In this document: positions 21,989 to 35,158 of the stretch, piece by piece | Numbering within the stretch: the stretch's first letter is position 1 | Layout of the letters: every line of letters begins with the position of its first letter | Origin: a virus | Taxonomy: Duplodnaviria > Heunggongvirae > Uroviricota > Caudoviricetes | Virus record (IMG/VR): IMGVR_UViG_3300045988_010208 | Length of the DNA stretch: 64,000 nucleotides | Strand: one strand, 5' to 3' | Notes under the pieces: model-generated | Databases searched by the model: none | What the model saw: only the letters and a program-made list of their open reading frames with translations | Told to the model about the DNA's origin: nothing | Position numbers and translations under genes: made by a program

Positions 21989-30004
<8,016 letters not shown>

Positions 30005-30006
30005 TA

Positions 30007-31173
30007 ATGGCAGTAGGTGAAATTCAAATTAGTGCCTTGCCTCAAGCAGCCTTACCAATTGACCTTAGTGATATCTTCCATCTTAAGCAGGGTATTGAGG
30101 ATAAGAGATGCACTCTTGAGCAATTACTTGCTCCACACTCAAGCCTAAGAAATAACCCTCACGGTGTTACTAAAACACAAATTGGTTTAGATAACGTTAT
30201 CAATGCTCTTCAGTTAGTTGCTGCAAATAACTTATCAGATGTTACTAATGTCACTGAGGCAAGGGCAAATCTACAGATTATGTCTTCAGAAGAGGTTAAT
30301 AGCCTTGTCCAACAGCATATTAATGATAAGAGTAATCCACACAATACAACTAAAGCACAGGTTGGTTTAAGTAATGTTCAGAACTGGACAACATCCAACC
30401 TTTATAATGAAGATGCAGATAAGTACGCTACAGCAAGAGCAGTAAATAACTTGTACAAGGCTGTTCAGGCTTCTTATCCAGTAGGTACTATCCATCTCTC
30501 TATGAATCCTGCAAACCCTTCTACATATTTAATTTGTGGAGGTACTTGGGAGTTAGTTTCAAGAGGAAGAGCACTTGTAGGTTATGATAGTGCTTCTAGG
30601 CCAGTTGGTAGTAACTTTGGCTCAAGTAGTATTAGTTTATCTAGTAACAACCTACCATCACATAGCCATTCAATCTATCTAACTGGTGGTGGGCATACTC
30701 ATGGTGCTACTATTACTATTGATGGCTTTGATTACGGCAATAAGAGCACAAACAGTTTCGATTATGGAACAAAGACCACTAATAGCACTGGTGCTCACAC
30801 CCACTCAGTGAGTGGTTCAACAAATACCACAGGTAATCACACACATACTGTAGGTGGTCGTTACGGAGGTGACTCTATTGGTGGTAAACAACGTGTTCAG
30901 GTCTCAGGGACTGCTCAGGTTTCCAGTGTAGCTGGTGACCACTCACACACTATTAGCGGTTCAACAAATACCACAGGCAATCACCAACACACTGTTGCAA
31001 TTGGTGCTCACACGCATACTGTTGCAATTGGTGCTCATACCCATAAAGGCACAGTAACTTTGCAGTCATCTGAGCATACTCACTCAGGTACTACAGGCAC
31101 TACAGGTGCTGGTCAAGCATTTAGCGTTGAACAACCATCCTTTGTGGTTTATGTATGGCAAAGAACCGCTTAA
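30007..31173 (+). CDS. Tail fibre protein with collar-like domain and His-box repeats
   Basis: 388 aa; collar-like segment (YPVGTIHLS...LPSHSHS) and repeated HxH motifs (GAHTHSVSG, GNHTHTVGG, GDHSHTISG, GAHTHTVAIGAHTHK). Confidence 0.7.
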   Translation: MAVGEIQISALPQAALPIDLSDIFHLKQGIEDKRCTLEQLLAPHSSLRNNPHGVTKTQIGLDNVINALQLVAANNLSDVTNVTEARANLQIMSSEEVNSLVQQHINDKSNPHNTTKAQVGLSNVQNWTTSNLYNEDADKYATARAVNNLYKAVQASYPVGTIHLSMNPANPSTYLICGGTWELVSRGRALVGYDSASRPVGSNFGSSSISLSSNNLPSHSHSIYLTGGGHTHGATITIDGFDYGNKSTNSFDYGTKTTNSTGAHTHSVSGSTNTTGNHTHTVGGRYGGDSIGGKQRVQVSGTAQVSSVAGDHSHTISGSTNTTGNHQHTVAIGAHTHTVAIGAHTHKGTVTLQSSEHTHSGTTGTTGAGQAFSVEQPSFVVYVWQRTA

Positions 31174-31224
31174 AAAATTCTTTTACAGGGGGCTGTATAG
31201 CCCTCTTTCTAGAGGACAAAAATA

Positions 31225-33576
31225 ATGGCAGATTACAAGTTGAGTGAATTAAACTCAATCGATACAATCCGTTCAGATGACCTTCTTCATGTCAGGGTTA
31301 AAAAGAGACCTGAAATGCTGGGTGATGAAGACCGTCGAATGACCTATCAAGATTTCTTAGCATCTTTTAAGCTTGAAAGATTTGTTCAGATTGCTGGTAG
31401 CACTATGACGGGTGACTTAGGGATTGTTAAGTTACTTTATGGTGGTAAGGCAGTCTTTGACCCTACAGGCTCTTCTGAGATTAATATTGGGGATGTTTTA
31501 AAGACTTTTAAAATTAACGCAAATGGTCTTAAACTAACTATTGCAGATGCTTCGAGGTCAGCAACTGTTTATCATACTCTGAATAAACCAAGTCCTAATG
31601 AACTTGGGATGAGAACTAATGAAGAGAATGATGCAAGATATGCAAAACTGGCTAACTCGAATACGTTTAAAGCCAAGCAAACTATTACATCGAATGGTGA
31701 GATTTTAACGCTAGTCACCCCTGCGGAGGCGAGTTCAGCGTACTGTGCCCTTGTAGGTAGAGACGCGAGTAATGAAAAGAATTGGGCTATTGGGAACCTA
31801 ATTAGAGGCAGCTTTGATGTTCAAATCAAGAGTAGACAAGGTTCCATCCTCACTCTAGGTACAACTGTAACGATTAATAAGACCCTTGCTGTTGTTGGTC
31901 AGGTCAAACCTTCTGACTTCTCTAACTTAGATGCTAGATACTTTACTCAGACAGTTGCTAATCAGAGATTTGCACAGTTAGCTGGCAATAACACATTTAG
32001 TGGTTCTAATATTTTCACTAATAATTTTGTTATTAAGAAGAATGCTAATGCTATTACTATTCAAAATGTAGATACAACTACGGCTTTGTATATCCAAGCA
32101 AGAAAATCAGATGGAGCTAATAAGTGGTACATTGGCAATGACGGTGATGAGAGTATTGTAAACATCTATAACTATTTAGCAAAAACACAAATCTCACTAG
32201 GCAACACCATTACTATGAGCAAAACAGTCCAAATTGGTGGTCAAGTTCAACCTTCTGATTGGACTAACATTGACTCTAGATATATTCCGGCAGCAACATT
32301 AAGTACAATTGCAAGAACTAATGCACAAAATACTTTTAATGGTGTACAGAAAGTTGTTACTGATGCTGAAGCCCTAATTGTGAAAAACTATACTCAGAAC
32401 AGACCATTGTATATCCGTGGTGTGGACACTGCTAATGTGTCAAGGTGGTGGGTAGGTGTTGGTGGGGCAGATACTAATGATGTAACACTAAATAACAGTT
32501 TTTCTGGCACTCAGTTAGTTTTAGGTAACTCATCTGCAAGTATCAATAAGACATTAACCCTAGCAGGGCAGATTCAACCCTCAGATTTCTCTAACTTAGA
32601 TGCCAGATACTTTACTCAATCAGCAGCTAATCAGGAATTTATGTATGCAGGTTCCACAGGTACTGGTAGTGAAGTAGGTGATAGTGATGGCATTGCTTGG
32701 AATGCTAAAACTGGTCTGTATAATGTTACAGGTTATGGTGGAGGCTCAACACAACTTGTTTTCCAAATGTATCAGGGTGCAAGCTCTACTCCCTCTGCTC
32801 AATTAAAATTCAACTACAGGAATGGGGGTTTTTGGTATAGGTCATCAAGGGATGGTTTTGGTTTTGAAGAGGACTTCACACAAATTTATACAGAGAAGTA
32901 TAAACCAACTCCTTCAGCTATTGGTGCATACACTAAAGCAGAGACTGACCAGAAGATTGCAGAAGCGATTAGTGACTCTACAGACCTGAATAAAATCTAT
33001 CCAGTAGGGATTGTGACATGGTTTAACAGTAATGTTAACCCTAATACAGCACTCCCTGGGTTAACTTGGACGTATCTGAACAATGGTGTTGGTAGAACTA
33101 TTAGAATTGCAGCAGCAAACGGTTCAGATGTTGCTACAACTGGTGGTTCAGATTCTGTAACGTTATCTGTTGGTAACTTACCTTCACACACTCATAGCTT
33201 CTCTGCGACTACTTCATCATTTGACTATGGTACTAAAACCACTAACACTACTGGTGCTCACACCCACTCAGTGAGTGGTTCTACTAACAACACTGGTGCT
33301 CATACACATACAGTTGGTGGTCGTTATGGTGGTGACTCTATCGGTGGTAAACAACGTGTTCAGGTATCTGGTACAGAACAGGTATCTAGCTCTGCTGGTG
33401 CTCACGCTCACACTGTATCTGGTACTGCTGCCTCTAACGGAAACCATGCTCACACTGTTGGTATTGGTGCTCACAGTCATACAGTTAGTGGTAACACTGG
33501 TGGTACAGGTTCTGGTTCAGCATTTAGTGTAACTAACCAGTTCTATAAGCTGATGGCTTGGGTAAGAACTGCTTAA
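31225..33576 (+). CDS. Long tail fibre protein with three internal repeats and His-box C-terminus shared with 30007..31173
   Basis: 783 aa; three ~100-aa repeats with GQ(V/I)(K/Q)PSD(F/W)(S/T)N(L/I)D(A/S)RY; C-terminal ~100 aa near-identical in protein to the tip of the preceding fibre. Confidence 0.7.
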   Translation: MADYKLSELNSIDTIRSDDLLHVRVKKRPEMLGDEDRRMTYQDFLASFKLERFVQIAGSTMTGDLGIVKLLYGGKAVFDPTGSSEINIGDVLKTFKINANGLKLTIADASRSATVYHTLNKPSPNELGMRTNEENDARYAKLANSNTFKAKQTITSNGEILTLVTPAEASSAYCALVGRDASNEKNWAIGNLIRGSFDVQIKSRQGSILTLGTTVTINKTLAVVGQVKPSDFSNLDARYFTQTVANQRFAQLAGNNTFSGSNIFTNNFVIKKNANAITIQNVDTTTALYIQARKSDGANKWYIGNDGDESIVNIYNYLAKTQISLGNTITMSKTVQIGGQVQPSDWTNIDSRYIPAATLSTIARTNAQNTFNGVQKVVTDAEALIVKNYTQNRPLYIRGVDTANVSRWWVGVGGADTNDVTLNNSFSGTQLVLGNSSASINKTLTLAGQIQPSDFSNLDARYFTQSAANQEFMYAGSTGTGSEVGDSDGIAWNAKTGLYNVTGYGGGSTQLVFQMYQGASSTPSAQLKFNYRNGGFWYRSSRDGFGFEEDFTQIYTEKYKPTPSAIGAYTKAETDQKIAEAISDSTDLNKIYPVGIVTWFNSNVNPNTALPGLTWTYLNNGVGRTIRIAAANGSDVATTGGSDSVTLSVGNLPSHTHSFSATTSSFDYGTKTTNTTGAHTHSVSGSTNNTGAHTHTVGGRYGGDSIGGKQRVQVSGTEQVSSSAGAHAHTVSGTAASNGNHAHTVGIGAHSHTVSGNTGGTGSGSAFSVTNQFYKLMAWVRTA

Positions 33577-33655
33577 TCCCTTATTGACTGATTGTTAAGA
33601 TGGTGTTAATATTCTTTATGGGTATTCTCACCATCTTGGCTGATGAGGTGATTAA

Positions 33656-33850
33656 ATGCCTACAATCCTAGCAATTCTTCTAAAAAATCTAGGTAGTTTC
33701 TTCTGGAAACTCATTTTATCCCTTCTAAGTGAATACATGATTGAGAAAGTGTTCTTTAAGCTTGCAAGATACCTTGCGAGTAAAACAGACACACCTATTG
33801 ATGATGAGTTCGTAGATAACTTAGAAAAAGCTTTTAAGGGGGAGAAATAA
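33656..33850 (+). CDS. Small membrane protein (holin-like candidate)
   Basis: 64 aa with hydrophobic N-terminal segment and charged C-terminus. Confidence 0.35.
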   Translation: MPTILAILLKNLGSFFWKLILSLLSEYMIEKVFFKLARYLASKTDTPIDDEFVDNLEKAFKGEK

Positions 33851-34222
33851 ATGAAGTGGCTAGAGGAAGCTTTTAAAAATAATATTGGTGCAATTGTAGT
33901 TGGTATTTTTAGTGTTATTGGGATGTATACCACCATGCAAGTTTCGGATGGTAAACAAGAAGTGTCTATCACAACAAAGTTACAGCAGTTAGATAATTAT
34001 TCCAAAAGTAATTATTCAGCTATTCGTGATTTACAGTCTGATATGAGGCTGCTTCAGCTAGGGATGGAGAACCAGAAAGTCCAGTTAGAGAATGTTAAGG
34101 GTGAGAACGCAAAACTTACTAAGACTCTTGATAAATTCTCTGATAGTGTGAACAATCTGGCTCAATCAGTATCAGCCCTCCAAGCTATTACTGAAAAGAA
34201 CACAAAGAATACTGAAAAGTAA
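33851..34222 (+). CDS. Membrane-anchored coiled-coil protein
   Basis: 123 aa, one predicted TM segment (IGAIVVGIFSVIGMYTTM) followed by heptad-rich region. Confidence 0.4.
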   Translation: MKWLEEAFKNNIGAIVVGIFSVIGMYTTMQVSDGKQEVSITTKLQQLDNYSKSNYSAIRDLQSDMRLLQLGMENQKVQLENVKGENAKLTKTLDKFSDSVNNLAQSVSALQAITEKNTKNTEK

Positions 34223-34258: not shown

Positions 34259-35158
34259 TTATTTACCTACTGACAAAGGTGCTTCAATCTTTCCTGCATG
34301 TTGGTAATTGTAAATGCCACCAATAAAATCACTTGCAGTGAGATGTTTTAAGTCACTTAAAGTGTTAAGTGGGATACCAATCTCAAAAGTTGGTGCATGG
34401 AACTCTTCATTGTTCATCAGTTCATAAACCTGCTTCATATGATTCTGATAAATCTGAGTATCTCCAAAGACACCTATCAAGTACCGTGGAGTGTATCCAG
34501 TCATCTTACAAAGAACTTCCAGAATAAAACCATAAGATGCAATATTAAACGGGAGTCCTAAAAAGGTGTCTACTGAACGCTGATACCATTGTAAGTCAAC
34601 TTCACCCTCGTTAGTGATATAAATCTGAAACAGAACATGACAAGGTGCTAAAGCCATCGAGTTGGATGCAATATCTGCTGCATTCCAAGCATTAACAAGC
34701 ATGTAGCGGTCTGTAATATCACCCTTCATCTTCGTTACTAAGGTCTCTAACTGGTCTACAACACAACCATTATGACCTTCAAAGTTTCTCCACTGAACCC
34801 CGTAGATTCTCCCACCTGCGTCATCTAACCAGTCTTGTTCAGAAGAATAATTAGAGCTTAACCAGCGTTTAAAATCATCTGACCAGATAGTCCAGCGTTC
34901 TCCATCATTTTCATCCCAAGTGCGGTAACGGAGTTCACCCAGTTTATTCTCACCATTCAGGAACCATAAAGCTTCCCCAATAACTTGCCGTGTAAACACC
35001 TGTTTAGATGTTAAGAGCGGGAAACCAGTTCGCATATCAAAACGAAACTGAGGTGGAGCAAAAGCAGAGATAACATCTCCAGTTCGTGTAGTACGCAGTT
35101 CACCAACGGATAAAACATGGTTCAAGATATTTTTGTAACTTGTATCTGCTTGTGACAT
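34259..35158 (-). CDS. thyA: Thymidylate synthase (ThyA family)
   Basis: ThyA signature around catalytic Cys: LAPCHVLFQIY ... YQRSVDTFLGLPFNIASY; DHFR gene adjacent. Confidence 0.85.
   Translation of the reverse strand: MSQADTSYKNILNHVLSVGELRTTRTGDVISAFAPPQFRFDMRTGFPLLTSKQVFTRQVIGEALWFLNGENKLGELRYRTWDENDGERWTIWSDDFKRWLSSNYSSEQDWLDDAGGRIYGVQWRNFEGHNGCVVDQLETLVTKMKGDITDRYMLVNAWNAADIASNSMALAPCHVLFQIYITNEGEVDLQWYQRSVDTFLGLPFNIASYGFILEVLCKMTGYTPRYLIGVFGDTQIYQNHMKQVYELMNNEEFHAPTFEIGIPLNTLSDLKHLTASDFIGGIYNYQHAGKIEAPLSVGK

Follow-up and report, generated by a model that had tools for sequence, protein, structure and literature searches.

We analysed a stretch of viral DNA of 64,000 nucleotides (nt) from the IMG/VR record IMGVR_UViG_3300045988_010208 (hereafter the window), in which two adjacent genes encode tail fibres whose tips share a nearly identical protein segment that differs at many synonymous sites. 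Both genes, like all fibre features described below, lie on the plus strand. The short tail fibre gene (STF; 30007-31173, 388 amino acids, aa) matched PHROG 2097 'tail fiber protein' over nearly its full length (E 3.8e-138), and the long tail fibre gene (LTF; 31225-33576, 783 aa) matched PHROG 4277 over its full length (E 0); their coordinates, lengths and strand in the list of open reading frames (ORFs) agree with those of an earlier note made from the sequence alone (hereafter the original prediction). The Pfam repeat PF03335 Phage_fiber was found in the LTF (41.8 bits) and in the STF (20.9 bits), both above the gathering cut-off of 20.

At positions 29700-33700, DNA identity was 95% with the Felixounavirus AN17P8 and 93-95% with many Felix O1-like phages of Salmonella, and both ORFs carry a tail fibre annotation in those 93-95% identical Felixounavirus genomes. 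Upstream of the fibres, one gene encodes a protein similar to baseplate J (Pfam E 2e-16), another a baseplate component (PHROG 4017) and a third a conserved protein of 100 aa (PHROG 4141), and this order, with two adjacent fibre genes downstream of baseplate wedge genes, is the same in all related loci. Because of the 95% DNA identity to annotated Felixounavirus genomes, the full-length PHROG matches and the baseplate genes just upstream, the two genes can be assigned to a Felix O1-like myovirus (Felixounavirus), in which they encode the straight tail fibres, one short and one long. Judging from genus and gene order, the STF is the counterpart of gp76 of Felix O1 (PMC3185647) and of gp26 of Bas63 (PMC12609058), and the LTF that of gp77 and gp27 of the same phages (PMC3185647; PMC12609058).

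Architecture of the fibre tips

The C-terminal parts of both fibres matched the crystal structure of the tip of T4 gp37 (PDB 2XGF; Bartual et al. 2010, as cited in PMC12609058), the STF over aa 146-359 (E 8.5e-26) and the LTF over aa 649-762 (E 8.4e-14), and we regard both, from these alignments, as homologues of the solved T4 receptor-binding tip. The proposal of the original prediction that the region rich in HxH motifs is a T4-type receptor-binding tip was thus borne out by homology search. We follow PMC12609058 for the domains of the T4 tip, in which the chain follows a six-stranded needle outward and, after a turn in a small receptor-contacting head, returns, with the HxH motifs coordinating Fe ions. 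All seven HxH motifs of T4 align to motifs of the STF, at aa 230, 264 and 278 on the outgoing and at aa 312, 326, 335 and 344 on the returning strand, and the STF has two additional ones at aa 219 and 357; the LTF has six, at aa 655, 679 and 693 (outgoing) and at aa 727, 741 and 750 (returning). A collar domain of the T4 gp10 C-terminal/gp37 collar type is present in the STF (aa ~154-228, 30466-30690), where aa 154-270 matched Pfam Gp10_C (E 8.9e-17) and the PDB gp10 chains 5HX2/2FKK were also recovered (E 3e-7 to 4e-7). The collar of the LTF (aa ~589-662, 32989-33210) matched Gp10_C weakly and below the cut-off (E 0.0015), and is 39% identical to that of the STF. A cryo-EM study of Bas63 describes a collar, an HxH needle and a head on both of its fibres (PMC12609058). 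By analogy with T4, we infer that each fibre is a homotrimer with axial metal sites at the HxH motifs, and that the head loop at the turn of the chain would contact the receptor.

The segment shared by the two fibres comprises the last two outgoing HxH motifs, a head of 29 residues and the first returning HxH motif. From the codon alignment, the divergence at synonymous (dS) and non-synonymous (dN) sites and the needle and head alignment to 2XGF, this core spans aa 251-316 of the STF (30757-30954; HxH 264 and 278, head, HxH 312) and, by alignment to the STF core and to 2XGF, aa 666-731 of the LTF (33220-33417; HxH 679 and 693, head, HxH 727). The apical head loop of the STF (aa 282-310, 30850-30936), VGGRYGGDSIGGKQRVQVSGTAQVSSVAG, lies between HxH 278 and HxH 312, where T4 gp37 has its head, and is the putative receptor-contacting apex; the loop of the LTF (aa 697-725, 33313-33399) was delimited on the same basis. 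The core is followed in each fibre by an arm of 23 residues, which in the STF (aa 317-339, 30955-31023) carries the returning HxH motifs 326 and 335 and ends in AIGAHTHTV, and in the LTF (aa 732-754, 33418-33486) carries HxH 741 and 750 and ends in GIGAHSHTV. The end of these arms was placed, together with the alignment of the two fibres, by the 3' boundary, at GIGAHTHTV, of the cassette that gp37 of Salmonella phage GRNsp7 has in common with one Felixounavirus LTF (see below).

Extent and divergence of the shared core

BLASTP aligned aa 157-339 of the STF with aa 592-754 of the LTF (185 aa, 55% identity, E 2e-51), far beyond chance, and the similarity is distributed unevenly over this alignment. 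The collar-like part (STF 157-226) is 39% identical between the two fibres (dN 0.81, dS 0.84), STF 251-312 is 90% identical in protein (93% for 251-307) and 80-81% in nucleotides, the segment STF 313-339 is 63% identical, and the C-terminal tail (STF 360-388), preceded by an insert of 20 aa found only in the STF, is 52% identical. The original prediction had described a near-identical module of ~100 aa at the extreme C-terminus. The module and the quoted consensus are real (90% identity in protein versus 81% in nucleotides), but the near-identical stretch comprises 62-66 aa, and it is not terminal, being followed by 72 aa in the STF and 52 aa in the LTF that are 52-63% identical and differ by the 20-aa indel.

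Over the 62 codons of STF 251-312 we counted 26.3 synonymous and 8.7 non-synonymous differences (dS 1.02, dN 0.065, omega 0.064), so that the alignment of DNA and protein upheld the synonymous differences and the purifying selection that had been proposed from the sequence. The 39 differences in the 198 nt of the core are mostly synonymous and spread over its whole length, with identical patches of 32 nt (the longest) and of ~23 nt. At identical residues the same codon was used in 33 of 56 cases, against 25.5 expected from independent draws on the codon usage of the phage (P about 0.02); the synonymous sites of the core are nearly, but not fully, randomised. In the heads, 27 of the 29 residues are the same, the LTF differing by A303E and V308S (STF numbering). 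Two further ORFs of 70 and 85 aa, antisense (33268-33480, minus strand) and out of frame (33275-33532, plus strand) to the LTF, overlap its His-box region and are most likely no genes but artefacts of the repetitive ACN/GGN/CAY codon composition.

The age of the two core alleles can be compared with the divergence of the phage backbone. In the gene of the baseplate J-like protein, dS between the window and four other Felixounavirus loci was 0.22-0.86, and it was 1.33 for the most divergent locus (L024). The two alleles are at least as old as much of the diversity of the genus, and a recent wholesale conversion in the window genome is excluded, because the dS of the core (~1.0) exceeds most of these backbone values. 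The collars are conserved among orthologues (LTF collar dN 0-0.013 and omega 0-0.03; STF collar omega 0.09-0.35), although dN between the collars of the two fibres reaches 0.81. Unless constraint shifted drastically once the fibres had split, the collars would have parted long before the cores, and this suggests that one fibre received the core from the other, or from an outside source, only when the two were already distinct.

Head types across Felixounavirus

Among 29 IMG/VR loci of Felixounavirus we found at least eight unrelated types of head sequence between the HxH motifs, the head being the most variable segment across the genus. In members of the E. coli type, the heads of STF and LTF are unrelated to each other, and the same head is present on both fibres only in the Salmonella-type subgroup, in 22 of 23 genomes (the window and Felix O1 included). 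In the exception within this subgroup (L020, of BPS17W1 type; IMGVR_UViG_2974591419, 87,609 nt), the Felix-type head is confined to the STF, and the LTF carries a shorter, unrelated head (QFGGYINSFYGDSSHTSFQPGGGAWTQAAG) and fewer HxH motifs in the tip. When the head was searched by tblastn in 50,697 phage records, a single match was found in five further records besides BPS17W1 (the records named being ph2-2, RPN213, P219, SLAM_phiST56 and BPS17W1 itself), suggesting an arrangement like that of L020, with the Felix-type head on one fibre. Because at least eight unrelated head types occur in the genus and only the Salmonella-type group has one type on both STF and LTF, the head is not intrinsically constrained but a replaceable unit.

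Within the cassette, selection is purifying overall, the ratio of non-synonymous to synonymous diversity (piN/piS) being 0.14-0.25 in 45 sequences, and amino acid variation is concentrated at five head positions (285 R/H, 295 Q/H/P/L, 300 S/F/Y/E, 303 A/E/N/V and 308 V/S/T/Y). The same alternative residues occur at these positions in both paralogues, which fits either exchange between them or parallel selection at sites of receptor contact, two causes that these data do not separate. The STF/LTF region of Felixounavirus was also seen, at ~90% identity, in a 147-kb record deposited as 'Staphylococcus phage SA1' (L094; GU169904.1, UNVERIFIED_ORG), probably a mixed or mislabelled assembly.

Exchange of tips between the two fibre genes

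We painted the 198-nt core of 43 STF and LTF sequences at the 39 sites where the two copies of the window differ, and in the 23 Salmonella-type genomes many genes contained contiguous tracts of the haplotype of the other paralogue. STF-type tracts in LTF genes extended over 17 consecutive sites in UAB_Phi87 and over 10 in Mushroom and PMBT20, and LTF-type tracts in STF genes over 25 sites in L020 and over 9-11 in Si3 and PMBT20; in Felix O1, an STF-type tract occupies the 3' half of the LTF core. A PHI-type test gave 0.361, compared with 0.565 +/- 0.022 for permuted site order (P=0.0002). Within single genomes, STF and LTF are identical over 141 nt in Seyj1-1, 115 nt in PMBT20 and 113 nt in UAB_Phi87 (permutation P=0.0002 each), and the LTF tracts of these three are identical solely to the STF of their own genome, every other STF differing from them by 2-6 bases or more and every other LTF by 4-8 or more. 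The tips of these relatives are thus mosaics of each other, and tracts that match only the paralogue of the same genome are the pattern predicted by intragenomic non-allelic gene conversion. The pair of the window is among the most divergent, core differences ranging from 17 to 45 across 21 genomes, with at least 40 in six pairs. We judge it unlikely that the mosaics arose through faulty assembly, as breakpoints vary between independent genomes and the Felix O1 sequence, which also has one, dates from the Sanger era.

A Felix-type cassette in a Tequatrovirus

A tblastn search with the 80-aa core against the same 50,697 phage records returned almost only Salmonella-type Felixounaviruses, of which there were ~80 genomes, the sole exception being the Tequatrovirus Salmonella phage GRNsp7 (169 kb), which was isolated on Salmonella. 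Its gp37 has a collar, a proximal needle and a C-terminus of T4 type, and a T4-like gp38 gene then follows; the flanks of this gp37 have almost the same sequence as 2XGF (E 5.8e-100 for the overall match). T4 DNA aligned to the region in two flanking pieces only, at 91.5% identity. In the middle, identity to the LTF of a Felixounavirus (L003) rose from ~40% to ~98% at 'SSFDYGTK', stayed there for ~223 nt, was 83-87% through 'GIGAHTHTV' and was then lost. The junction was found in no other of the 50,697 records. Judging from these breakpoints, the same cassette appears to have been transferred between the LTF of a Felixounavirus and the gp37 of a Tequatrovirus.

Shaft of the long fibre, short fibre N-terminus and neighbouring genes

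The three internal repeats of ~100 aa noted earlier in the longer fibre were recovered with a period of about 110 aa. They are tandem shaft repeats (aa 116-251, 252-365 and 366-474; 31570-32646) with anchor motifs at aa 226, 340 and 449, a pairwise identity of 31-42% in self-alignment (z 19-28 versus shuffles) and three matches to Pfam gp37_trimer (E 3.5e-60). A domain of the gp37_C or Mu/P1 tail fibre S type follows (aa ~469-586, 32629-32982), which matched Pfam gp37_C (E 3.7e-33) and, over aa 469-579, PDB 8JU3 'Tail fiber protein S/S'' (E 3.7e-23). The S-type domain is located between the shaft repeats and the gp37-type collar, so that at least three fibre lineages are combined in the LTF. 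Intact LTFs are 777-849 aa long, with a length polymorphism of ~60 aa in Sl26, Mushroom, FG1m and L003, and frameshifts split the LTF into two to three ORFs in the deposited genomes L002 (Si3), L010 and L083 (ST11). The N-terminal part of the STF (30007-30440, aa ~45-130) contains a repeated motif, NPH(G/N)xTKxQ(I/V)GLxNVxN, at aa ~50-66 and ~109-126.

Directly 3' of the LTF lie two small ORFs on the plus strand: one of 64 aa (33656-33850) belonging to PHROG 402, and one of 123 aa (33851-34222) belonging to PHROG 4038, whose N-terminus is hydrophobic, whose remainder resembles a coiled coil and which weakly matched Rz-like spanins. No tail-fibre assembly family was among the PHROGs matches of these two ORFs. 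A block of minus-strand ORFs begins at 34259, the first two of which resemble, by eye, thymidylate synthase and dihydrofolate reductase, enzymes that PMC3185647 lists for Felix O1; the block coincides with a change in the sign of the GC skew from plus to minus near 34 kb, which returns to plus near 46 kb.

Discussion

Taken together, we consider it probable that both fibres carry gp37-type tips and that the stretch which they share is an exchangeable apex cassette, present in the window as two old alleles and patched or moved in its relatives. According to this model, three identical chains would form each fibre and fold at their C-termini, as in the T4 gp37 tip, into a collar and a six-stranded needle, in which every chain reaches the apex and then returns; their HxH motifs would stack octahedral metal sites (Fe2+ in T4) on the axis, and the small head loop at the turn would contact the receptor. 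Indirect hints of such contact are the variability of the head across the genus, its amino acid hot-spots and its presence in the segment that was passed to a T4-like phage infecting Salmonella. The shared stretch, that is the distal needle and the 29-residue head, would then be the apex that determines specificity. It may form a separate cassette, some 75-90 aa in length and delimited by the highly conserved His-box segments 'SSFDYGTK' and 'GIGAH(S/T)HTV', which could act as homology arms for recombination. In the Salmonella-type subgroup one head type is borne on both fibres, and because the head type is the same, both presumably bind the same ligand. For Felix O1 this ligand is likely lipopolysaccharide (LPS), since LPS is the reported target of the phage and resistance has been mapped to genes of the LPS core. 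Exposure to a Felixounavirus selected, for instance, rfaK and rfaB mutants of Salmonella (PMC6669636). The window genome would harbour unmixed alleles of 'STF type' and 'LTF type' that have long been separate (dS about 1) and were kept alike by purifying selection (omega about 0.06), and in related genomes the copies would have been repeatedly patched from each other by non-allelic gene conversion, the cassette also having moved into a T4-like phage. The more far-reaching proposal, that the cassette is a circulating host-specificity unit which is matched on both fibres by recurrent conversion and can be transplanted from an Ounavirinae LTF into a Tequatrovirus gp37, retargeting it to Salmonella, we find somewhat easier to believe than to doubt.

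Several points weigh against this model or parts of it. The signal of conversion in the pair of the window is marginal (longest identical run 32 nt, P=0.019), and this pair served as the reference of the painting, hence it is 'pure' by construction. GRNsp7 is a single record assembled with SPAdes from Illumina reads, and a chimeric assembly is possible. Even T4 gp37 shares about 74% identity with the ascending needle, 'SSFDYGTK.TNSTG.HTHS.SGST' (counted from the alignment of the STF to 2XGF), and therefore part of the protein identity of the core reflects structural constraint and says little about its history. The argument from the ages of collar and core assumes a similar constraint before and after the fibres split. 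As to the structure, the fibre models of Bas63 are AlphaFold fits in density of low resolution, without a direct view of the metal (PMC12609058), and the BASEL paper calls host recognition by Felix O1 still elusive.

The copies might alternatively owe their similarity to no duplication in this lineage at all, each fibre having separately gained a diverged allele of the head cassette by horizontal transfer from other phages. The mobility of the cassette between families (GRNsp7), a dS between the copies that equals or exceeds the backbone dS across most of the genus, and the genomes with the head on one fibre (L020 on the STF, and the further records with a single match) are in line with such an origin; however, of the 50,697 records, GRNsp7 was the only one outside the Salmonella-type Felixounaviruses to contain the head, leaving no visible external pool of donors, and both alleles fall within the diversity of one clade, so that we think this scenario rather unlikely. 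Less likely again is a single old tandem duplication of the tip module, the copies of which evolved independently ever since and stayed alike by purifying selection alone, without exchange. This was in essence the reading of the original prediction, which argued for an old duplication rather than recent gene conversion, and it agrees with the window (dS about 1, omega 0.06, longest identical run 32 nt) and with VSe102 and Sl26, which also have an unmixed pair. Its denial of a recent wholesale conversion in the window genome stands (dS ~1, no identical run above 32 nt), but as a general account the reading is not supported: it is already contradicted for the clade by mosaic tracts identical only to their own paralogue (113-141 nt; PHI-type test, P=0.0002), the collars, conserved among orthologues, are far more diverged between the fibres (dN 0.81), the two fibres of most other Felixounaviruses carry unrelated heads and the head is thus replaceable, and the cassette occurs in GRNsp7.

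Two other explanations were rejected. A recent gene conversion that homogenised the tips of the window genome itself would account for the slight excess of identical codons (33 versus 25.5, P about 0.02) and for the patches of 32 and ~23 nt, yet it is contradicted by the level of synonymous divergence, with 39 mostly synonymous differences in 198 nt along the whole core of a pair that is among the most divergent, and we hold it to be very improbable. Hardly any weight can be given to convergence, in which the same protein sequence arose from unrelated starting points: both fibres presumably meet the same receptor, and the same alternative residues recur at the hot-spots of both paralogues, but 81% nucleotide identity, the excess of shared codons, the collinear homology through collar and needle and the mosaic tracts speak for shared descent of the segments. 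Among all these explanations, an exchangeable apex cassette is the one that we prefer.

The function proposed in the original prediction, i.e., fibres with T4-type HxH tips, is already published for the genus: the similarity of the Felix O1 fibres to T4 gp37 was reported in 2010 (PMC3185647), and the architecture of collar, needle and head on the two fibres of Bas63 in 2025 (PMC12609058). In the papers searched on Felixounavirus tail fibres and their recombination we found no mention of one head on both fibres, of conversion between STF and LTF or of the cassette in Tequatrovirus, an exchange between STF and LTF is not described in PMC10612097, and a literature search on His-box recombination in gp37 found nothing. 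What is added here are the exact limits of an exchangeable apex cassette, the presence of the same head on both fibres, the mutual patching of the two genes and the occurrence of the cassette in a T4-like Salmonella phage. The sharing of the head, the conversion between paralogues and the Tequatrovirus cassette are incremental refinements in the known framework of modular tail-fibre evolution. They nevertheless point to natural breakpoints for the host-range engineering of gp37-type fibres, which would, if the model is true, be pre-validated splice points, and they offer a testable idea on why Felix O1 is so broadly Salmonella-specific. If the model is true, this phage would also use two fibres of unequal length with the same receptor-binding head.

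Comparison with known fibre systems

The closest structural relative is the T4 gp37 tip, with which the window fibres share collar, HxH needle and head in the same order, all seven T4 HxH motifs being aligned in the STF, and probably also the doubling back of the chain at a small head. The fibres differ from T4 gp37 in the head loop, which is shorter and unrelated in sequence, and in the number of HxH motifs (seven in T4, two more in the STF, only six in the LTF). In T4 and in GRNsp7 gp38 follows gp37, whereas a PHROGs scan found no gp38-like chaperone gene after the window fibres, and fibres of Felixounavirus attach directly to the baseplate, without the gp34-36 chain of T4 (PMC12609058). Within the genus, gp76/gp77 of Felix O1 and gp26/gp27 of Bas63 have the same T4 gp37-like tips with HxH motifs on both fibres (PMC3185647; PMC12609058); the tips of Felix O1 (L096; genes of 1167 and 2349 nt) are near-identical to those of the window, and Bas63 differs in its HxH count (seven in the STF, six in the LTF). 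To the tail fibre protein S of Mu/P1 type (PDB 8JU3) the LTF is homologous over aa 469-579, but here the domain is internal, is followed by a gp37-type tip and lies outside the shared module.

That tail fibres trade their tips at conserved motifs is a classical idea. Tetart et al. (1998, J Mol Biol) reportedly described how recombination at His boxes and other conserved motifs swaps the specificity of the adhesins gp37 and gp38 in T-even phages, and Haggard-Ljungquist et al. (1992) reportedly described the transfer of tail fibres across families. With the T-even case, the Felix-type fibres have in common hypervariable specificity segments flanked by conserved His motifs that contain the breakpoints, and the resulting mosaic tips; they differ from it in the partners of the exchange, which are on the one hand two paralogous fibre genes within a single genome and on the other members of Ounavirinae and Tevenvirinae.

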